From: a virus | Lineage: Duplodnaviria > Heunggongvirae > Uroviricota > Caudoviricetes | IMG/VR virus record: IMGVR_UViG_2563366805_000011 | DNA: 9,154 nucleotides | Reading direction: 5' to 3' (one strand) | Shown: piece after piece, positions 1 through 9,154 of the stretch | Layout: each line of letters begins with the position of its first letter | Position numbering within the stretch: position 1 is the stretch's first letter | Translations under genes and position numbers: made by a program | The notes under the pieces: generated by a model | Databases searched by the model: none | What the model saw: only the letters and a program-made list of their open reading frames with translations | What the model was told of the DNA's origin: nothing

Positions 1-1236
1 CTACGATAACCGCGCATTCAACATGGCTATCTGTTCGTCGTTCATGTCATCAATCCACATACCGTAAATTTCATACACCATCTGCGCAGTTTCATGCCCC
101 ATTTGGCTGGCTATAAATGCCGGGTTCGCTCCTGCCGTCAACAGCCAGCAGGCAAAAGTATGCCGCGTATGGTACGGATTACGGCGGCGAATACCAGCAC
201 GTTTTACTGCTGCATTCCACCTTGCCCCCAAACTGCTTACCGAGTAATAAGGTTTTTGTTTTCCGTTACACACCCTGGGCATGAAAACAAAATGCAGTTT
301 TTGCTTTTCGGTTCTGCCGTACTCCCGATGATAAAAGGTGATTTCGCTTTTGCGATGATGCCCGGTCAGTTTGTATTGCTCCTTCAGTGCTTCAAGAGCA
401 GGCTGCAGTAGTGTTACTGTTCGGATCCCGGCATTTGTTTTTGGGGGACCGAACATATCAAGTATCGTCAGGTTTCTTCTGACATTCACTATTCCCTTTT
501 CGAGATCCACATCCTCCCACGCCAGAGCTGCCAGTTCCCCGTGACGAAGTCCTGAGTAAACGGCAAATTTCCACAAGTTCTGGCTCTGTCCTTTTTCACT
601 TTCCATTAATGCATTGAATTCTGTTTTAGATAACGGATCAGGCTTTATTCTGTTTCGCTGTAATTTTTTTACTCCTTCAAATGGTTTGGTTGATATAAAT
701 CCCGACTGATACGCAAAACGCAACAGCGAACAGAGCAGGGCGATATAGTTATCAACTGTGCGCACGGTTCTTCCTTTTTTGTTGGATCTTGGATTATCCA
801 GGTAAAGCGTTTCTCCATGCAGCAGTTCATTCCGGTAGTTTAAGATATCGCTATAACGAATATGTGATATCGGGGTACTTTCACAAATTATTATTCTGAG
901 TGTTTTTAATTGTGATTTCGTTTTCTTCATTGTGTTTGTTGTTAACTCTGTCTCTTTAATTTTTGTCCAGATATCACAAAGCTCTCCGAACGTTTTTATG
1001 ACTCTCGTTGTCACCATTTTTGCCCCAGTGCTGGACTGGGGAAAACGTCTTAAATACTCAAATTCACCGGAGTTTATTTCATGAACTATCAGCGCTCTTA
1101 AATTTCCGGCCTTTTTAATATTACTGTTTGTAATCTCCCAGCCTTTTAATGTTTCCCGACATCGTTTTCCTCGAAACATGAACCAGATGCGAATGTATCT
1201 ACCTCTAATCTCGACACCTGTTGGTAATTTAGACAT
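1..1236 (-). CDS. intR: Phage tyrosine integrase (Rac prophage IntR), 411 aa
   Basis: Minus-strand ORF from ATG (1236..1234) to TAG (3..1); the window begins exactly at its stop codon. Translation carries the tyrosine-recombinase catalytic signature (LRHGEL ... HTRHTFA ... C-terminal YEIYG). It lies 1 nt downstream of an excisionase-like ORF. Length and sequence match Rac IntR as I recall it. Confidence 0.95.
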   Translation of the reverse strand: MSKLPTGVEIRGRYIRIWFMFRGKRCRETLKGWEITNSNIKKAGNLRALIVHEINSGEFEYLRRFPQSSTGAKMVTTRVIKTFGELCDIWTKIKETELTTNTMKKTKSQLKTLRIIICESTPISHIRYSDILNYRNELLHGETLYLDNPRSNKKGRTVRTVDNYIALLCSLLRFAYQSGFISTKPFEGVKKLQRNRIKPDPLSKTEFNALMESEKGQSQNLWKFAVYSGLRHGELAALAWEDVDLEKGIVNVRRNLTILDMFGPPKTNAGIRTVTLLQPALEALKEQYKLTGHHRKSEITFYHREYGRTEKQKLHFVFMPRVCNGKQKPYYSVSSLGARWNAAVKRAGIRRRNPYHTRHTFACWLLTAGANPAFIASQMGHETAQMVYEIYGMWIDDMNDEQIAMLNARLS

Positions 1237-1237
1237 A

Positions 1238-1453
1238 TCATGAGTCTTTGATAAACTGATTTATCTTTGGATAGTTGTACCAGATAATCCCTCGTTTGCT
1301 GTCTGGCTTACCTAAAGGAGATACTCGTTTGAAGTGGAAGCCCTCCACCCAACAGTTCTGGCGGTATGCTTCAATTTGTCTGGCCCCCAGACCAGTGCGA
1401 AGCATCAGGCCGTATTCAACCATCCACTCTTCATTAAAGATTACTTGTGCCAT
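1238..1453 (-). CDS. ydaQ: Excisionase-like protein (Rac XisR/YdaQ), 71 aa
   Basis: Minus-strand ORF; TGA stop (1240..1238) is 1 nt from the intR ATG. The ORF track extends to a TTG at 1477, but ATG 1453..1451 preceded by GAGG (7-nt spacer) gives 71 aa ([15 protein letters not shown]...), the length I recall for YdaQ. Small basic protein directly upstream of the integrase. Confidence 0.85.
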
Positions 1454-1531
1454 CGCATCACCTCTGGCAGGCGCCAATGTTAGACTGAAATTGACGCCCG
1501 ATGTTGATTATTAATAATCAGCTATGAAGTT

Positions 1532-1741
1532 TTAATTTGAATACAATGCAATTCTCGAGGACTGAAGTTTCTCGCAATTAAAATTTATCAATTTTACTTT
1601 CTGCTCTCTGGAAACGCCTGCTTCTTTTTTACCTGAGAGCATTTTTTCGCATTCTGATTTCGTTAGTTTAGATTTTGAATATCTTGTCCAGTTAGTAGGA
1701 GTGCCACCTTCCTTTTCAATAGTGGCGGTAATTTTATACAT
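1532..1741 (-). CDS. ydaC: Rac prophage protein YdaC, 69 aa, function unknown
   Basis: Minus-strand; the ORF track gives 93 aa from a GTG at 1813, but ATG 1741..1739 preceded by GGAGGTG (5-nt spacer) gives 69 aa (MYKITATIEKEGG...), matching recalled YdaC length. TAA at 1534..1532. Confidence 0.8.
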   Translation of the reverse strand: MYKITATIEKEGGTPTNWTRYSKSKLTKSECEKMLSGKKEAGVSREQKVKLINFNCEKLQSSRIALYSN

Positions 1742-1928
1742 GAACACCTCCATTATTATTTCCAGTGGTTCGTTTATTCCATCTTTCGAGTGCTTCTTTT
1801 TCACTTCCACCATAACCGGTTCGGGATTCGCATCCGTTACACTTCGCTCGGTAATATCCTGAAATGGCTTTCACCGTTACTGATGGACAACCACAAAATG
1901 GACATGGTTTAACATTGTCATATCTCAT
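1734..1928 (-). CDS. ralR: RalR/Lar restriction-alleviation protein; DNase toxin of the RalR/RalA type I toxin-antitoxin pair, 64 aa
   Basis: Minus-strand; ATG 1928..1926 gives 64 aa (MRYDNVKPCPFCGCPSVTVKAISGYYRAKCNGCE...) with CPFCGC and CNGC cysteine motifs, matching recalled RalR. TAA (1736..1734) lies 2 nt before the ydaC start. The track's 77-aa version starts at an upstream in-frame ATG (1967). Confidence 0.85.
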   Translation of the reverse strand: MRYDNVKPCPFCGCPSVTVKAISGYYRAKCNGCESRTGYGGSEKEALERWNKRTTGNNNGGVHV

Positions 1929-1940
1929 AATTTTTCTCAT

Positions 1941-1976
1941 AAAAAATATTTCAAGTTGGCGGTGCATTACACCGCC
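1941..1976 (-). terminator. Hairpin between recT and ralR, weak terminator/attenuator candidate
   Basis: 7-bp GC-rich stem GGCGGTG (1958..1964) / CACCGCC (1970..1976) with loop CATTA. On the minus strand a U-run (plus-strand A-run 1941..1946) follows 11 nt after the stem, which is non-canonical spacing. Confidence 0.25.
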
Positions 1977-1984
1977 AGGCTGAA

Positions 1985-2794
1985 TTATTCCTCTGAATTA
2001 TCGATTACACTGTATTCCCCGGTTAATACAGAGGAATCTGCAGGATCGATTGTCAGTGGTTCCTTTTCATCCATTGATACTGCACGCTGGATCTCAATTG
2101 ATACGGGCAGATATTTGAACAGGCGACGAATAGCCGTTTTCTTTGCCATTTCTTCCCAGTGAGTTACCCACGGCCCGTTATTACCAGCTTTACTCAGGCT
2201 GCGCACCAGCTCAATCTGTTTGCGCGTCATAACTTCAAACTGAGTACCTCCGTCTTTCAGTCTTGCGACAGCATAGACGTGGGTAACCGGGGCATCTTCG
2301 TTTTCTCCCGGGCGGTGTATTAACTTTTCATCAAGGCCAAATTCGAAGCTAAACTCGTCACCTTCACGGACAACACGGGCTGACAGGCTGGCGATTTGAC
2401 CAGAACGGCGAGCCAGATCAATCATGCCGCGATAGCCAATGATTAGCTGAACGTTCTTTTTACCGCTCTTTTCGTTTTTATTACCAAAAGGCAGTAAATA
2501 TGCATGACCGAGGGCGCTACCTGGCTCAAGTCCGAGCTGTGAACACTGTACGATCGCACTGACAAAACTCATAGTGTCACAGTTTCCTAACGCCGGAACT
2601 TTACGAATTTCTGTGGTGGCGATACGGATCATACGTTCAGCCGTCATATGGCGTGGAAGAGCTGCTGCCAGTTGCTCTTTCATTGATGGCTGGTTAATAA
2701 AACTAATCACGTCGCTATTTTTAACTGCTGCTGGTGCACGGTTTCCCTGAGTTTTTTGCAGATCGGCTTTTGCGATTGGTGGTTGCTTAGTCAT
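1985..2794 (-). CDS. recT: RecT single-strand annealing recombinase, 269 aa
   Basis: Minus-strand; ATG 2794..2792 with AAGGA 8 nt upstream gives 269 aa ([13 protein letters not shown]...), the RecT length I recall. The start is 2 nt downstream of the recE stop. The track's 288-aa version begins at a GTG inside recE. TAA at 1987..1985. Confidence 0.95.
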
Positions 2795-5387
2795 TTGCAT
2801 ATTCCTTAGCCCAGCGGGGCAGTGATAATGTCTTAATAGCTGGCCATTCATCGGTATTCAGGCAGTCAGACAGGGTTCGCAGATTGCGGTGATATTCCTG
2901 TTGACCTGCCAGTTTTGCTTCTTCGCCCATCATGAAAATTTCAACCGGATAACGTCCGCATTCAATAGTTGTGCTGGCAACCAGAAAAACGAAAGTTGGC
3001 TGCACTCCAAACTGTGCTTCATAACCGTCACTGTAGAATGCATCCTGAACGTGATAGCGGTAGTCGTAATAAGCGGTTTTGAATCGTTGAATATCCGCCG
3101 TAGTTTTCACGTCCATGATCCAGTGAAATTCAGGGATAATTTTGTCCGGACGGCACCGACACAAAATTCCTGTTTCAGGATCTTCCCAGTAAATTGATGA
3201 TTCAGCGTGTCCGGCGCTTTCAACAAGCCATTGCCCCAGCGGCAAAGCCATAACGCTTTGATACATGAGTTCAATTTTCCGGCCTTCTTCCGCAGTGATA
3301 ACCGTTTTTCCTGTGCTTGCGCATTCCATCAGAAACGCTTTCTCTTCTTCTTTTCCGGCGTTTGTACGGCGGTTAAATTCAGGTGCTACGATAAAGCGGT
3401 TACTGAATTCTTCCGGTTCAAGTACCCGGCAGTGGAAAGCAGTTCCTAAATCGAGCGTTTTTGTCTTTGTGGTGTCCACGGGGGCATTTTTACGCCACAA
3501 ATATAGTGCCGGAGTATCAGCAATGTCATCGAGCTGAGACTTACTGATACCGGGACCCGCGTGGTAATTCTCATTCGAAATTCCGTAATAAATACCTGGC
3601 TCTATGTCTTCTACGATTACGGGATCTGCGACTTCGCCAGTTTCATCACTGCAATCGCGATGCGGATCGCTGCCAGCATTCTCATTGTGCGGATGTTCAG
3701 CGCCTTCCATTTCCTCCGGATCATTTTCCTTAGCTTCAACCTGACTCTCTTCATCGAATGTTTCCTGGTATGTTGCGTCGCCCATCACCGCACCACAGTC
3801 AGGGCAGTTATCCCCGCCAGTCTGGCCGCAGGCATTGCAGGCTATTTCCGGTTCCTGTTGCACTACTGGCTCAGGTTGATTCATATCTGGGCTGGTTTTT
3901 TCCGTTTCTGGCTGGTTCTGGTACACACAATCGCGAGTCTGGATCCCCTTTACCCATTTCGGATCGTTCGGGTCGCTAATTCCGTCAACAAATTCACCAC
4001 GTGATGCAGCAAGCAATTTATCGTCATCGACAGGATTTTTTGATGGAATGTTTTTCCGGGCTTCATGGAGTTCTGCCCGCAGTTCCTGATATTTCGCATC
4101 AACAGAATTTACCTGTGACTGAGCATCCAGCGGCTGCGTGTCCTGATGATGTTCAGTTGCGTCCGGTTCCATTGTTTCAGCCTCTCCCTGTTCAACTGCC
4201 GTTGTTCCAGATGGTTGCGGTTTTTCTTCATCATCCTGTTTTCCTTCTTCTGTTACTCGCTGCGGCATCGGGGCAGAGGAGCGACCGCAGGCAATATCCA
4301 CGATTTCCGGATCAGGGTTGGCATGATCGGTTTCAGTCAGTACTTTGTTCAGATATTCAGTGACGTGCGCGGGGATGACCTCGATCCCAATTGGTGCTTC
4401 TTTTACGGACGCAACCACGATGGCGCGGGAATAATCCAGCCCGCCAGGCATGGTGATGAATTTGTCGCGGAAAACAGAAAAGGGCGGTTTATTTTCAGCG
4501 ATAATTTCCTCAATGCGTTTAGCGTGTGCCGGATGAAGGTTATAGATGTCCAGATCCATTGAACGGGCCAGTACGCCAGTGGCTACGTCGCGCGCCAGTG
4601 ACGTCAGATCGTGTACGAAACCTTCGCCGCGATCGGTGAGGTTTCCGCCGCCAGCATTAGCACCGGAAGCCGTGCGAGTGATGTGTGAAACACGATTACC
4701 CTTCATCCACTCTTTTGTCAGCAGTCCTCGATCGGTGTAGTCAGCGTTCAGGTATGCTTCGAAAAAAGCAGTTATCAGTCCCAGGTTTGAATTACCAGGA
4801 TTAGGGAAAACTTTGTCAGTGTCACGAACCAGTTTGTGGAGTTCGCGAATTTCCAGCGGGTCGAGCAGGCTGGTTTTGTGGGAAACAGCCAGGGCAGTAA
4901 CAGCCGGTAGTTCTTCAGCCCGAGCAATGTGTAATGCCTGGAGTCCGTCGCGTGAAACGTGCGTTACCGGTTTTTCGCTGCCGTGTTGAGCAAGCCAACG
5001 AATGGGCAGTTCCTGGCCAGAAATTGGGAGTAGCATATTCTCCTCAATCTCAGTCATGTCTTCGCCGTTGACGTTGGTATTGCCTTGATAGTGAGCGTTG
5101 TCTGGTGCTGCTCCCGGTTTTAGTTCCCATGTCATGGAGTCTTTGCTGAGTTGATAGCGTTCACTCCAGGTAAAATCGATCTCACCTTCAGCGGGCAGGT
5201 CATTAACGACAGGAAAATTCGTGGCAACAGCTTTAAAATAGCTGCTCAGTTTTTTACCTGACTTAACGATCAGGTAGTCCAGAGTGGCACAGGTCGATTC
5301 AAAATCGTTGCTTGCCCACAGGACGACGTCAGGTTCACTGGATGATTTTTTCGCTTTCCGTAACAGGAAGAGTGGTTTTGTGCTCAT
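2787..5387 (-). CDS. recE: RecE exodeoxyribonuclease VIII (5'-3' dsDNA exonuclease), 866 aa
   Basis: Minus-strand 866-aa ORF, ATG 5387..5385, TAA 2789..2787. Same length as Rac RecE as I recall. The C-terminal third (from about residue 590, ...[18 protein letters not shown]...) is the nuclease domain region; the N-terminal two thirds contain an acidic low-complexity segment and a CxxC-x7-CxxC motif. Paired with recT immediately downstream. Confidence 0.95.
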
Positions 5388-5459
5388 TGTTTTTTAACCT
5401 CAACTCAGATTAAAATTCGTTTTGTTCAGTGAATGATCTTGCCGGATACACACTGTTCA

Positions 5460-5490
5460 TAGCCTGCGCCATACGCAGGCTATTTCTTTC
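5460..5490 (+). terminator. Intrinsic-terminator-like hairpin in the racC-recE intergenic region
   Basis: Perfect 9-bp stem TAGCCTGCG (5460..5468) / CGCAGGCTA (5474..5482) with loop CCATA, followed on the plus strand by TTTCTTTC (5483..5490). On the minus (gene) strand the same stem lies just after the racC stop but has no U-tract. Confidence 0.35.
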
Positions 5491-5764
5491 AGATTTCACC
5501 TTTTAATTTCATTGCAATTAGAGTTGCCAGAAATTCGGCTTTTTTTTCTGCGGGCAGATTCTTTCCGATATGCACCAGGCACATTTTTTTGACACCTTCA
5601 TCAAGTGTTTTTACGTTGCCTGATGGACTATCGATATCAACCACAGTGAATGGGGTTTCTTTATTTTCTGTTTTAATTACGTAGCCAATGCGCTTTCCTT
5701 CCAGATTCACCTCGTGAACAATGTCATCGGTAGTTACAACAGTGGCTTCATAATTGGTAATCAT
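5489..5764 (-). CDS. racC: Rac prophage protein RacC, 91 aa, function unknown
   Basis: Minus-strand; ATG 5764..5762 preceded by AAGGAG (6-nt spacer) gives 91 aa (MITNYEATVVTTDDIVHEVN...), matching recalled RacC length. The track's 107-aa version starts further upstream. TGA at 5491..5489. Confidence 0.85.
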   Translation of the reverse strand: MITNYEATVVTTDDIVHEVNLEGKRIGYVIKTENKETPFTVVDIDSPSGNVKTLDEGVKKMCLVHIGKNLPAEKKAEFLATLIAMKLKGEI

Positions 5765-5838
5765 GTTTTTCTCCTTAATTAAGGTTGAGCGAATACCTGC
5801 CATTTCTGGCATAAATTCAGTTTCGAATAGTCAATTAA

Positions 5839-6009
5839 TTAAAGTTCATGTGCCATCTGGTCTTTTTCGGCACAAGCTTCACTGCAATATTTTCTCGGTT
5901 CGTCTTTTGATAAAATCCCGTGCATGAAGTGAAGCATTCTTTCAATAGCTTTGCTTTCTTCAACGTCTTTTTTGCAAAGGTGGTAAGCACATTTTATTTT
6001 CTTAGTCAT
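5839..6009 (-). CDS. ydaE: Small Cys/His-rich protein YdaE, 56 aa, probable metal-binding
   Basis: Absent from the ORF track (too short). I translated it by hand: minus-strand ATG 6009..6007 overlaps the kilR stop (ATGA), with GGAG 8 nt upstream, giving [56 protein letters not shown] and TAA at 5841..5839. Length and position match recalled Rac YdaE. Confidence 0.75.
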   Translation of the reverse strand: MTKKIKCAYHLCKKDVEESKAIERMLHFMHGILSKDEPRKYCSEACAEKDQMAHEL

Positions 6010-6230
6010 CACCATGACTCCGCCTTTACAGGTAAACCATCACGACCGAGGAAGACTTTAATCATGCGGTCAGTAATGCATGTTTTTGTGGTCAGGTTAC
6101 GAATATATAGTTTTCGCTTTTTAATATTGTTTGCCGAGGCAATATATGTCCGGCCTTCATGAAGAACATAATCGCCAGGAGTCACACACTGACGTGGTAT
6201 TTCATCAGTTCCGAAGTGATGTGCAATCAT
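6009..6230 (-). CDS. kilR: KilR, prophage-encoded cell-division inhibitor (host killing), 73 aa
   Basis: Minus-strand; ATG 6230..6228 with GGAG 6 nt upstream gives 73 aa ([30 protein letters not shown]...), matching recalled KilR. The track's 77-aa version starts at an ATG that overlaps the SD. TGA at 6011..6009 overlaps the ydaE start. Confidence 0.85.
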
Positions 6231-6671
6231 AATTATCTCCATTTTTACAAATGAACTTTGTTGATGCGGTGCCTGGTGCCTCCAGGTGACTGCAACCAGT
6301 TAACAATTACAGTCGGCTTTCCCACCCAAACCAATAAGGACTAACATGACTTTTAACTGTGCCACGTGCGCTTAGCCGCATTCACCGCATCACAAAATTC
6401 ACTTTAAAAAGGGCGGACATCAGCCGAACTTCAAGAAAAAAACTGATGCCGCCAGGACTACACACAGCAATGTCGTTATTTACAACCGGAGGCGCACTCC
6501 CACCATTTAAATTTAACAGACAAGACCGACTCTTTATGGATATCGGAAATGCGCCTTCGTGTTGTGCCCGGTTTTATTTCACCACCTCCGGGCTTCGGTG
6601 GTCTCGGCTATACCCCTACAGCGAGAGCTTGTGTTAACATTTCAATACCCTTACAGTTGAGAGTTATTGAT

Positions 6672-7160
6672 ATGTTGGATGTATTTACTCCATTGTTGAA
6701 ACTTTTTGCTAACGAGCCACTCGAAAGACTTATGTATACGATTATCATTTTTGGTCTCACTCTCTGGCTGATACCGAAAGAGTTTACTGTCGCATTCAAT
6801 GCTTATACTGAAATACCTTGGCTCTTTCAGATTATCGTTTTTGCCTTTTCTTTCGTGGTCGCCATTTCCTTCTCAAGATTGCGAGCACATATTCAAAAGC
6901 ATTATTCATTACTACCAGAGCAACGAGTATTGCTTCGTTTATCTGAGAAAGAAATCGCTGTATTTAAAGATTTCCTTAAAACAGGAAATCTTATTATCAC
7001 TTCTCCTTGCCGTAACCCGGTTATGAAAAAATTAGAACGGAAGGGCATCATTCAACATCAGAGTGATAGCGCAAACTGTTCTTATTATCTCGTCACCGAA
7101 AAATACTCCCATTTTATGAAGTTATTCTGGAACAGCAGGAGTAGACGTTTTAATCGTTAG
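6672..7160 (+). CDS. sieB: SieB superinfection exclusion protein (membrane), 162 aa
   Basis: Plus-strand; ATG 6672 with GAGAG 8 nt upstream gives 162 aa, matching recalled Rac SieB. Two strongly hydrophobic N-terminal segments (YTIIIFGLTLWLIP, WLFQIIVFAFSFVVAISF) indicate a membrane protein. The track's 203-aa version adds a Pro/Gly/Arg-rich extension from ATG 6549 that I consider unlikely. TAG at 7158..7160. Confidence 0.85.
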   Translation: MLDVFTPLLKLFANEPLERLMYTIIIFGLTLWLIPKEFTVAFNAYTEIPWLFQIIVFAFSFVVAISFSRLRAHIQKHYSLLPEQRVLLRLSEKEIAVFKDFLKTGNLIITSPCRNPVMKKLERKGIIQHQSDSANCSYYLVTEKYSHFMKLFWNSRSRRFNR

Positions 7161-7322
7161 CTTACTGTGTGCTTCTCCAACCATCGGCGCGCACCAGTTT
7201 CGGTTTTAAATGTTTTGCTTTTGGTATACGTCATGGCAGTGAACGTTCCATCCTGGTTGGGGAACACGCCGCACACCAGGGATTCGTTGTTGCCGAGGTC
7301 GATTTTTTGCATTTTGCGAATC

Positions 7323-7457
7323 TCACATCTTGTTGCTACGTATAGCGACTTCTGCCTGCCAGAGATCCCAGTCGTTGCTGCGTAAAGCCTGCACAGCCTG
7401 GTTGTAAGTGATACCGCAACAATCCATCAAATACTGAACTACTTCGTAATGCACCAT
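7323..7457 (-). CDS. ydaG: Small protein YdaG, 44 aa, function unknown
   Basis: Absent from the ORF track. I translated it by hand: minus-strand ATG 7457..7455 preceded by a strong SD (AAGGGGAGAG, about 5-nt spacer) gives MVHYEVVQYLMDCCGITYNQAVQALRSNDWDLWQAEVAIRSNKM, with TGA at 7325..7323. The 44-aa length matches recalled YdaG. The name is assigned by size and position and could be swapped with ydaF. Confidence 0.7.
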   Translation of the reverse strand: MVHYEVVQYLMDCCGITYNQAVQALRSNDWDLWQAEVAIRSNKM

Positions 7458-7489
7458 CTTATCTCTCCCCTTAACGCCGGGTGGCGGAA

Positions 7490-7645
7490 CTAACTGCTGC
7501 ACTGCAAAATTTGAATCCCGCCGTCATGTTCATACGCCTCGGGCTGGCTACTTAACCCCTTACCACTGCCTGGTAACTCGAAGTATTGCCCTGCGTTCTG
7601 TGGGGCGGGGTGGGTTGGTAGGTATATAATGTACTTTGTGTTCAT
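7490..7645 (-). CDS. ydaF: Small hypothetical protein (YdaF-like), 51 aa; doubtful
   Basis: Minus-strand ORF with tandem ATGs at 7648..7646 and 7645..7643 (MMNTKYIIYLPTHPAPQNAGQYFELPG...); 51 aa from the second ATG matches recalled YdaF length. There is no recognisable SD, and the start lies inside the operator/promoter-like cluster (7626..7670). The track's 72-aa version starts at a GTG. Confidence 0.45.
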   Translation of the reverse strand: MNTKYIIYLPTHPAPQNAGQYFELPGSGKGLSSQPEAYEHDGGIQILQCSS

Positions 7646-7670
7646 CATTGTAAAGTACTTTAAGTACATT
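7626..7670. promoter_or_regulatory. Operator-like repeat cluster with a candidate leftward PL-like promoter
   Basis: ATGTACT (7629..7635), a perfect 12-bp palindrome TAAAGTACTTTA (7651..7662), and the reverse-complement copy AGTACAT (7663..7669). On the minus strand, TTTACA (7654..7649), a 17-nt spacer, then CATTAT (7631..7626), pointing toward ydaG-kilR-recET. Prediction by eye only. Confidence 0.4.
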
Positions 7671-7744
7671 TTATGTATAAAAAAATGAGACGGGATAAAG
7701 TGAAGCACAAACCCGGAGGGGGACGCTACCGGATTTATGCTGAT

Positions 7745-8164
7745 TTAAGAGGCTTTTTGTTTTTTCTTTCGTGCTAACTCTTCGTAAATTGCATTGTACT
7801 TCTGTTTTTTCTCCTCAAGAGTTTTTAAAAGTTCATCTGTCTCACTGTCAGGGAGCTCGTCCAGAAGGTCAATGATGATTTTTTGTCTTGGATTTAACTC
7901 CTGATAGAAACGTATCTGTCCACTTTCTTCTGTATCCTCTCCCAAAAGATAGGTTGGTGTTGTTCCAATGAGTGTTGCTAATTCCCTTAATTTCTCTCGG
8001 CGAGGAATTGTTTCACCATTAAACCATTTGCTAACCGCTTTTGGTGTTAATTTCATTCGACGGGCAATTTCTGCCTGCCTTCCATGTTGTTCATAACCAG
8101 CGTTTTCACAGGCTAGCGCAAGCCTACTGGCGAACTCTTTACGCGCTTTATCTTCATGAACCAT
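7745..8164 (-). CDS. racR: Prophage repressor, cI-like XRE-family HTH protein (RacR-like), 139 aa
   Basis: Minus-strand; ATG 8164..8162. The N-terminal half has an XRE/cI-type HTH (FASRLALACENAGYEQHGRQAEIARRMKLTPKAVSKWFNGETIPRREKLRELATLIGTTPTYLLG); the C-terminal half is a charged, coiled-coil-like tail with no S24 peptidase domain. It is divergent from a Cro-like gene, with operator-like repeats on both sides. No SD upstream, consistent with a leaderless transcript. I recall K-12 RacR as 158 aa, so this may be an allelic variant or my recollection of the length is off. Confidence 0.8.
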   Translation of the reverse strand: MVHEDKARKEFASRLALACENAGYEQHGRQAEIARRMKLTPKAVSKWFNGETIPRREKLRELATLIGTTPTYLLGEDTEESGQIRFYQELNPRQKIIIDLLDELPDSETDELLKTLEEKKQKYNAIYEELARKKKQKAS

Positions 8165-8171
8165 AAGTTCA

Positions 8172-8200
8172 ATGATATTCGCTCTTGAATGTACTGTCAG
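8172..8200 (-). promoter_or_regulatory. Candidate PRM-like sigma70 promoter for racR (leaderless)
   Basis: On the minus strand, CTGACA (8200..8195), a 17-nt spacer, then TATCAT (8177..8172); the predicted start falls at or next to the racR ATG (8164). There is no SD upstream of racR. An ATGTACT operator-like site overlaps the -35/spacer. Prediction by eye only. Confidence 0.45.
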
Positions 8201-8222
8201 TTCTGTTATGGCATGTACTCAA
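8187..8222. promoter_or_regulatory. Two direct ATGTACT repeats in the racR/cro divergent intergenic region (candidate OR operators)
   Basis: ATGTACT at 8189..8195 and 8213..8219, 24 bp apart, inside the 79-bp interval between the divergent racR and Cro-like starts. The same heptamer recurs in the region downstream of racR. Confidence 0.45.
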
Positions 8223-8243
8223 AGTTCACATTGTGAGGATGAT

Positions 8244-8423
8244 ATGAACCAGAAAACACTTGAAGATGTAATCAAAACTGTTCGCGTTTCTGTTGTGGCC
8301 GACGTTTGTGGTGTCAGCCAAAGAGCAATCTACAAATGGATGGATAACGGAAAATTGCCTCGCACAGAATATACCGGCGAAACAAATTACGCTGAAAAAA
8401 TGGTGATGCTGCCAACTTACTGA
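8244..8423 (+). CDS. Cro/YdaS-like HTH regulator; 3' end fused to the IS1 left end (probably truncated)
   Basis: Plus-strand ATG 8244 with GAGGA 4 nt upstream; HTH-like segment (QKTLEDVIKTVRVSVVADVCGVSQRAIYKWMDNGKLP). Native sequence ends at 8401 (52 codons); the last 7 codons and the TGA stop (8421..8423) lie inside the IS1 left inverted repeat. It occupies the position of the first rightward gene (ydaS in K-12 Rac). The track's 83-aa version starts at an upstream ATG (8172). Confidence 0.7.
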   Translation: MNQKTLEDVIKTVRVSVVADVCGVSQRAIYKWMDNGKLPRTEYTGETNYAEKMVMLPTY

Positions 8424-8424
8424 T
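8402..8424 (+). repeat. IS1 left terminal inverted repeat (IRL)
   Basis: GGTGATGCTGCCAACTTACTGAT matches the IS1 terminal repeat as I recall it. The partner IRR is outside the window. Confidence 0.85.
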
Positions 8425-8456
8425 TTAGTGTATGATGGTGTTTTTGAGGTGCTCCA

Positions 8457-8732
8457 GTGGCTTCTGTTTCTATCAGCTGTCCCTCCTGTTCAGCTACTGA
8501 CGGGGTGGTGCGTAACGGCAAAAGCACCGCCGGACATCAGCGCTATCTCTGCTCTCACTGCCGTAAAACATGGCAACTGCAGTTCACTTACGCCGCTTCT
8601 CAACCCGGTACGCACCAGAAAATCATTGATATGGCCATGAATGGCGTTGGATGCCGGGCAACTGCCCGCATTATGGGCGTTGGCCTCAACACGATTTTAC
8701 GTCACTTAAAAAACTCAGGCCGCAGTCGGTAA
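8457..8732 (+). CDS. insA: IS1 InsA (DNA-binding transposition inhibitor), 91 aa
   Basis: GTG start at 8457 preceded by GAGGTG; translation [42 protein letters not shown]... with zinc-finger CxxC...CxxC and a C-terminal HTH; TAA at 8730..8732. Recognised as IS1 InsA. Confidence 0.95.
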
Positions 8733-9154
8733 CCTCGCGCATACAGCCGGGCAGTGACGTCATCGTCTGCGCGGAAATGGACGAACAGTGGGGCTATGTC
8801 GGGGCTAAATCGCGCCAGCGCTGGCTGTTTTACGCGTATGACAGGATACGGAGGACGGTTGTTGCGCACGTATTCGGTGAACGCACGCTGGCCACGCTGG
8901 AGCGTCTTCTGGGCCTGCTGTCGGCCTTTGAGGTCGTGGTATGGATGACGGATGGCTGGCCGCTTTATGAATCACGCCTGAAGGGAGAACTGCACGTTAT
9001 CAGCAAGCGATATACGCAGCGCATTGAGCGGCATAACCTGAATCTGAGGCAGCATCTGGCAAGGCTGGGCAGGAAGTCACTGTCGTTCTCAAAATCGGTG
9101 GAGCTGCATGACAAAGTCATCGGGCATTATCTGAACATAAAACACTACCAATAA
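8651..9154 (+). CDS. insB: IS1 InsB' reading frame (167 aa as annotated); expressed as the InsAB' transposase by -1 frameshift from insA
   Basis: ORF in the -1 frame relative to insA, ending at TAA 9152..9154 (last codons ...HYLNIKHYQ). Recognised as IS1 InsB. It differs at several residues from the K-12 IS1 copy I remember. Confidence 0.9.
8706..8714 (+). other. IS1 programmed -1 ribosomal frameshift site (TTAAAAAAC, A6C motif)
   Basis: A run of six A followed by C near the end of insA, in the insA/insB overlap. This is the known IS1 frameshift motif that produces the InsAB' transposase. Confidence 0.8.

Follow-up and report, generated by a model that had tools for sequence, protein, structure and literature searches.

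The DNA analysed here, a window of 9,154 nt, represents the left part of a prophage of the Rac type, with the backbone and integration site of Rac as judged from gene content and from comparison with the K-12 locus. The genes of this arm and the elements of the adjoining immunity region are arranged as follows:

1-1236, minus strand: intR; the gene order after it is xis, rcbA, ralR, recT, recE (866 aa), racC, ydaE, kilR, sieB, ydaF and the repressor gene
7745-8164, minus strand: prophage repressor gene, 139 aa, HTH_3, DicA-like (Pfam HTH_3, 1.8e-9)
8156-8227, divergent intergenic region: three operator-like 15-nt repeats found by a repeat search, core TGWAC-N5-GTTC
8156-8170: operator-like repeat 1, ATGAACCATAAGTTC
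8189-8203: operator-like repeat 2, ATGTACTGTCAGTTC
8213-8227: operator-like repeat 3, ATGTACTCAAAGTTC
8172-8200, minus strand: sigma-70-like promoter toward the repressor gene, -35 CTGACA, 17-nt spacer, -10 TATCAT, 10 of 12 consensus matches
8244-8401, plus strand: native 5' part of a Cro-like gene, 52 codons plus 2 nt (84 codons in the intact gene)
8244-8423, plus strand: fusion ORF of 59 aa, MNQKTLEDVIKTVRVSVVADVCGVSQRAIYKWMDNGKLPRTEYTGETNYAEK followed by MVMLPTY from the left end of IS1, with the stop codon TGA at 8421-8423

A 26-bp att core (TTGTTCAGGTTGTATTGTTCTTTCTT) is retained at attL of the window, and a single SNP separates the window from the genome of ECONIH4 across positions 1-8401. 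In K-12, the same backbone occupies the same site, where ttcA is followed by intR, xisR, rcbA, ralR, recT and on to ydaF. The layout of the K-12 racR-ydaS-ydaT module (PMC5700373, PMC5700377, PMC5917428) is likewise shared, in that a repressor gene is divergent from a small HTH gene that is followed by ydaT. What differs is the identity of the parts: the 139-aa repressor and the 84-aa Cro-like protein are heteroimmune to those of K-12, and in the strains matching the window ydaT and everything rightward of it have been deleted.

An earlier sequence-only reading of the window had named the repressor RacR. This label does not hold, since BLASTP matches between the repressor and K-12 RacR are limited to 33 residues at the HTH (E = 1e-4) and those between the Cro-like protein and K-12 YdaS to 18 residues around the HTH (E = 0.028). 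The repressor is thus not an orthologue of RacR, nor is the Cro-like gene ydaS, and a likeness confined to a short HTH stretch marks the module as heteroimmune. The repressor scores 56 bits against the NCBIfam DicA subfamily, under the cut-off of 101, and is identical to WP_000233319.1, which is present in ECONIH4 and in O157:H7 ATCC 43894. A mosaic boundary is seen when window positions 7745-8243 are set against K-12 positions 10766-11662, where the repressor gene and the first rightward gene are unrelated to racR and ydaS; the flanks of the module are Rac-like, with sieB and ydaF on the left and, in intact relatives, ydaT on the right. YdaT of these relatives is 94% identical to K-12 YdaT, and ydaT, the only K-12-like member of the rightward module, is deleted in the assemblies matching the window. 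The same immunity module is also present in a Qin/DicB-type prophage (F5656C1).

The three putative operators show, as read from their letters, the half-site symmetry TGAAC/GTTCA, and the predicted leftward promoter, a consensus match only, overlaps the middle one. In the rightward direction, the scan of 8165-8243 gave no sigma-70 promoter at or above its threshold and inspection by eye yields only weak candidates, and we therefore claim no coordinates for P_R.

The Cro-like gene opens at 8244, which is also the RefSeq start of its intact homologue in ECONIH4 (WP_001072342.1), an 84-codon gene that overlaps the start of a ydaT-family gene. When the window is aligned with the uninterrupted Rac-type prophage of ECONIH4, positions 8244-8401 are identical to ECONIH4 9500-9657 and the two diverge exactly at 8402. 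The ORF had been described as running into IS1 at 8402 after 52 native codons, with its last seven codons and the TGA stop supplied by the element; translation agrees, with codon 53 being a hybrid (AT native, G from IS1) that changes Ile to Met and is followed by six IS1 codons, VMLPTY. The exact 59-aa fusion protein occurs on 29 contigs in NCBI, ENA and Logan, for example as EOW08297.1. Among 5426 complete E. coli genomes, the Cro-like gene is matched in 1046 and the repressor/cro 5' segment in 1049. Disruption of the gene is rare (5/1046), its coverage being at least 80% in 1041 of the 1046 carrying genomes. Since the uninterrupted gene in these 1041 genomes has 84 codons, and not about 52, the element is situated within the gene, whose product it cuts short at residue 52 of 84, as the sequence-only reading had proposed.

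The predicted truncated product keeps the HTH and has lost residues 53-84, the stretch in which the phrog_35-conserved region ends. The HTH is represented by a Pfam HTH_17 match, below threshold, at residues 15-40, a stretch that the truncated product retains, and the match to phrog_35 'transcriptional repressor' (1.5e-14) covers residues 1-67 in the intact protein, against 1-43 in the fusion. The label 'Cro-like', and with it the putative function, is based on gene order, the three operator-like repeats and a CII-like neighbour, and not on family membership: no match above threshold to Pfam Cro, P22_Cro or YdaS was obtained, only sub-threshold ones to HTH_17, MerR and AlpA, and a comparison of the 84-aa protein with PDB sequences returned nothing meaningful, with no relative among solved structures. 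In intact relatives the gene has the position typical of cro, being a small HTH gene that comes first in the operon divergent from the repressor gene and is followed by a cII-type gene, the product of which, YdaT, matches phrog_163 'CII-like' (5.4e-36).

YdaS and YdaT of CP-933P have been shown experimentally to be analogues of Cro and CII (PMC8630535, PMC9986795). The present module resembles lambda Cro/CII and CP-933P YdaS/YdaT in that the first gene is divergent from the repressor gene, three operator-like repeats are present and a CII-like gene comes next. It differs from CP-933P in being the module of an O157:H7 Rac-type prophage, lacking paaA2-parE2, with no Cro family model above threshold. 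We also considered that the Cro-like gene might be CP-933P YdaS itself and rejected this, as the identical module stands beside recE, kilR and sieB in the Rac-type prophage of ATCC 43894 and the CP-933P proteins are different.

From 8402 to its end, the window consists of the following elements:

8402-9154, plus strand: the first 753 of the 768 bp of IS1, identical at every one of these 753 nt to copies from complete E. coli genomes
8402-8424: left inverted repeat (IRL), GGTGATGCTGCCAACTTACTGAT
8409-8436: P_IRL-like promoter, from a promoter scan
8457-8732: insA (Pfam Zn_ribbon_InsA, 1.3e-21; HTH_Tnp_IS1, 1.8e-30)
8708-8714: A6C frameshift motif AAAAAAC
to 9152-9154 (TAA): insB' frame (Pfam DDE_Tnp_IS1, 5.9e-74)

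This alignment bears out the identification of 8402-9154 as IS1. The element has the terminal inverted repeats of IS1, about 23 bp long, and its insA and insB' frames, together with the A6C -1 frameshift motif for InsAB'; RefSeq describes the identical resident copy of ECONIH4 as an IS1 family transposase made by programmed frameshift. Of the right end of the element, the last 15 nt fall outside the window; the full copy in scaffold KE137155.1 is 768 bp long and ends with ...AAGTTGGAGTCATTACC. Two other full-coverage matches (F5656C1 and strain 573) proved to be unrelated IS1 copies, located in a Qin/DicB-type prophage and in sieB.

Two contigs were followed past IS1: scaffold KE137155.1 of GCA_000408565.1, which is identical to the window over all 9154 bases, and a 140-kb contig of GCA_040785665.1. 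The link from the window, which ends inside IS1, to these assemblies rests on sequence identity of its 9154 bases. In KE137155.1, the right end of IS1 (...GTTGGAGTCATTACC) is followed by GATTTTGCGACATTTAAAAGCG. The right flank, GATTTTGCGACATTT, maps to position 25997 of the K-12 locus, within the ttcC pseudogene at a distance of 188 nt from uspF, which places it in the chromosome beyond the right end of Rac. The ttcC remnant is succeeded by uspF, ompN, ydbK, ydbJ, hslJ and ldhA, and neither attR nor ydaT, replication genes or late genes are found past the right end of IS1 in this scaffold. The att core is gone at this end, the flank beginning 11 bp past the end of the core as placed in K-12. 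The remnant kept is the fixed left arm with int, xis, rcbA, ralR, recT, recE, racC, ydaE, kilR, sieB, the repressor gene, the operators and cro'. In GCA_040785665.1 (region 10927-11000), the cro'-IS1 left junction is the same and the right flank is CTTCGGCTGCATGTG; here the right end of IS1 is joined to about codon 23 of ompN, with uspF and almost all of ompN lost, which indicates that this IS1 made a second deletion at its opposite end. A scan of GTDB representative genomes for the junction gave no match.

The nine bases at the left end of IS1 (8393-8401, plus strand, TGAAAAAAT) had been put forward as one copy of a possible target-site duplication. They are not repeated at the right end, where the flank is GATTTTGCG in KE137155.1 and CTTCGGCTG in GCA_040785665.1. 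A simple insertion of IS1 is flanked by a direct target duplication of 8-9 bp; its absence shows that this copy does not mark a site of simple insertion, and is no argument against its being IS1.

The history of the element becomes apparent from closely related genomes. ECONIH4 carries an IS1 that is identical at 768 of 768 positions, in the same orientation and with the same right flank, at merged coordinates 19731-20498, and its left end adjoins an MFS-transporter gene, 10,073 bp rightward of the breakpoint in cro. The junction of IS1 with ttcC is common to 23 complete genomes at 100%, which include all 21 complete genomes carrying a 100% identical repressor/cro 5' query (window 7745-8401). 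While the right junction is fixed, the left junctions of this resident IS1 vary and form a nested series, given here in ECONIH4 coordinates:

19730: ECONIH4 and mussel ST536, next to the MFS gene
11755: ABWA45, 3' end of ydaV
9657: the window, KE137155.1 and GCA_040785665.1, cro codon 53
6510: C 236-04A, recE
in abgT: MS 115-1

No target duplication is present at any junction pair of the series. The resident IS1 of the 'intact' ECONIH4 is itself without one (left ...CCCACAGCA, right GATTTTGCG), and the attR core is absent there, indicating that the late region of the prophage had been lost before, in a previous IS1 event.

Several of these genomes carry further rearrangements. ECONIH4 has a BCCT-DUF2254-LysR-GGCT-MFS cargo cluster between DUF977 and IS1, and in mussel ST536 an IS3-family element with a group II intron (ltrA) is found in the LysR gene of this cluster (positions 10328-13811 of the contig). 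C 236-04A carries IS1 at 983-1750 and 13258-14025, the resident copy having made a deletion leftward into recE and a second copy lying in abgT. In MS 115-1 (13258-14025), a left junction in abgT is fused to the uspF right junction, and the whole prophage has been lost together with ttcA, dbpA, zntB, dgcM and smrA. MS 115-1 is apparently an IS1 x IS1 recombinant of the abgT and uspF copies that are both present in C 236-04A; its left junction is that of the second IS1 of C 236-04A, indicating that recombination between IS1 copies operates in this lineage. In 2273-PO3 (NZ_CP061749.1), the immunity module (2485392-2486048, plus strand) and the IS1-ttcC junction (2731034-2731133, minus strand) are about 245 kb apart on opposite strands, which suggests an IS1-associated inversion.

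The sequence-only reading inferred an insertion that blocks expression of everything downstream and left open whether IS1 had instead mediated a deletion of the rest. It is this second option that the flanking sequence supports, KE137155.1 passing from IS1 directly into the ttcC remnant and uspF. A resident IS1, a shared right junction and the absence of a duplication together argue for an IS1-mediated deletion and against a simple polar insertion, and we hold with high confidence that the segment to the right of cro was deleted by IS1, in one step or in two. As to the route, a one-step adjacent deletion promoted by the resident IS1 is in our judgement the probable one. IS1 is resident at the right prophage boundary, beside ttcC/uspF, throughout an E. 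coli lineage. Intramolecular transposition of this copy into a nearby target would have rejoined IRL to codon 53 of the Cro-like gene and cut out 10,073 bp of the arrangement seen in ECONIH4, keeping the IS and one flank and making no target duplication. The missing material, which corresponds to 877,501-887,573 of ECONIH4 NZ_CP026399.1, comprises the 3' third of the Cro-like gene as well as ydaT, a ydaU-like gene, ydaV, DUF1627, DUF977 and the BCCT-DUF2254-LysR-GGCT-MFS cluster.

Such events have reportedly long been known, adjacent deletions promoted by IS1 being credited to Reif & Saedler 1975 and IS1-mediated intramolecular rearrangements with replicative deletions to Turlan & Chandler 1995. 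A retained IS with one fixed and one variable flank and no duplication is the signature of IS-promoted adjacent deletion, and this is what the comparison shows: relative to ECONIH4 and the 22 other genomes, IS1 and its right flank are unchanged, 10,073 bp are missing and the endpoints are nested. Orientation is kept and the other flank is joined to nearby DNA, as in the IS1-promoted deletions already described, from which the present case does not differ in kind; what we have here are natural alleles, reconstructed by comparative genomics. Both adjacent deletion and recombination between IS copies are documented causes of IS copies that lack a target duplication (PMC11708052).

Recombination between two IS1 copies is the second way in which the deletion may have come about, and we regard it as possible but rather doubtful. 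A new IS1 would have inserted in cro at 8401/8402 in direct orientation, generating a 9-bp duplication, and then recombined with the copy on the uspF side, which would remove the intervening 10 kb, one IS1 copy and the duplication. Exactly the observed structure would result, the identical IS1 sequence fits both routes equally, these genomes contain about 26-40 IS1 matches each, and MS 115-1 looks like a recombinant of this kind. However, no intermediate was found in the 5426 complete genomes or in JGI metagenome contigs. The right junction expected of an insertion (IRR, 8-12 bp and then GAAAAAATCGCTCATGCATC, in the 3' part of cro) was met 0 times among the complete genomes and 0 times in the metagenome contigs, a weak negative in the latter, where the control left junction itself had only 1 match. 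Moreover, a separate pair of insertion and recombination would be required for each of the four left endpoints on the one fixed right junction and for the single right-end move, whereas a one-ended adjacent deletion covers all endpoints directly.

A mis-scaffold across a collapsed IS1, with the 10-kb segment still present between two copies, would also produce a cro'-IS1-uspF join. The KE137155.1 assembly is at scaffold level and IS1 is present in about 30 copies in these genomes; most junction contigs stop inside IS1, 40 of the 62 blocks lie on contigs of 10-20 kb, and contigs L005-L008 end in or at IS1. Nevertheless, the independent 140-kb contig of GCA_040785665.1 also passes through IS1 into chromosomal DNA, closed genomes of the same lineage carry real deletions of the same type, and neither complete genomes nor JGI metagenome contigs showed the right junction that a second IS1 copy in cro would have, so that we consider an artefact very unlikely. 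IS1 insertions are polar, and a simple insertion in cro that silences an intact downstream prophage by blocking P_R-driven expression, as originally proposed, is compatible with the window taken by itself, in which the ORF is truncated as described, but it is hardly credible, as both contigs followed past IS1 enter chromosomal genes and not ydaT or later genes, no duplication exists, the right junction is that of the pre-existing IS1 and the predicted junction IRR-TGAAAAAAT-CGCTCATGC was not found.

The deletion from the resident IS1 changes what can be said about the state of the prophage. The sequence-only reading concluded that the insertion locks the element in the prophage state by polarity. 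The element would indeed be locked, the cause being the loss of the attR core and of everything rightward, and not polarity, which is moot because no rightward operon is left to express. Because the attR core was lost, as it already had been in ECONIH4-type ancestors, the remnant is predicted to be unable to excise by Int/Xis.

It had also been suggested that racR is dispensable in this strain. The background invoked, that RacR is essential in K-12 through repression of ydaS/ydaT, agrees with the literature (PMC5700373, PMC5700377), and deletion of racR is tolerated in K-12 once ydaS-ydaT has been deleted (PMC5700373). Because the present repressor is not a racR orthologue, the suggestion can be argued by analogy only; by that analogy, the repressor may have become dispensable for the rightward side, although kilR and the leftward genes are intact. 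Natural strains that have lost the toxic CII-like ydaT and the replication genes while keeping the repressor, kilR and recET could serve to ask if a repressor of this kind is still required.

The operators, cro' and with them P_R now immediately precede IRL and insA, with which they share a strand, and the stop codon of cro' at 8423 precedes insA by 34 nt. It is conceivable, as a long shot, that the prophage switch has thereby become fused to IS1, such that the repressor could gate read-through into the element. If this were true, repressor-gated transcription into IS1 could set the levels of transposase and InsA or the activity of IRL, and IS1 rearrangements such as the later ompN deletion would be coupled to the state of a defunct phage switch.

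The event itself is a textbook case of ordinary IS-driven prophage decay, already known as such, in a sequence already public and annotated, and nothing here alters existing knowledge of IS1 or Rac. Its main value is a corrected annotation, namely the end point of a prophage remnant in place of a silenced but otherwise complete operon. The outcome is the same as in other prophage decay in which the right arm is lost and recET and the left arm are kept; unlike there, closely related genomes here reveal both the agent, one resident IS1, and the stepwise order in which it acted. The lineage offers a clean natural case in which a single resident IS1 has worn away, step by step, first a cryptic prophage and then the adjoining chromosome (uspF, ompN).

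Minor variants were noted elsewhere in the collection. In the Logan assembly ERR9385440 (3721-4551), recT is called as a 276-aa product with a DUF1187 (rcbA) match and no separate ralR or rcbA is called; the remnant is otherwise identical, and a small deletion or fusion within its ralR-rcbA region is suggested. In BKQ37E (NZ_CP170328.1, 6545-7483), an independent IS1 of a different subtype (IS1A, 30 mismatches to the IS1 of the window) is joined to the Cro-like gene at a point 13 nt downstream of the junction in the window; its orientation is the same, it has no target duplication, and the DNA beyond it is different, with a hypothetical gene, DUF1971 and then late genes and trkG. Combat13F7 (NZ_CP019245.1, 4929-5741) carries an IS-free deletion from nt 106 of the Cro-like gene into the ydaU-like gene that removes ydaT. 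Together with the allele of the window, these make three independent deletions that start in cro, lose ydaT and keep the repressor gene.
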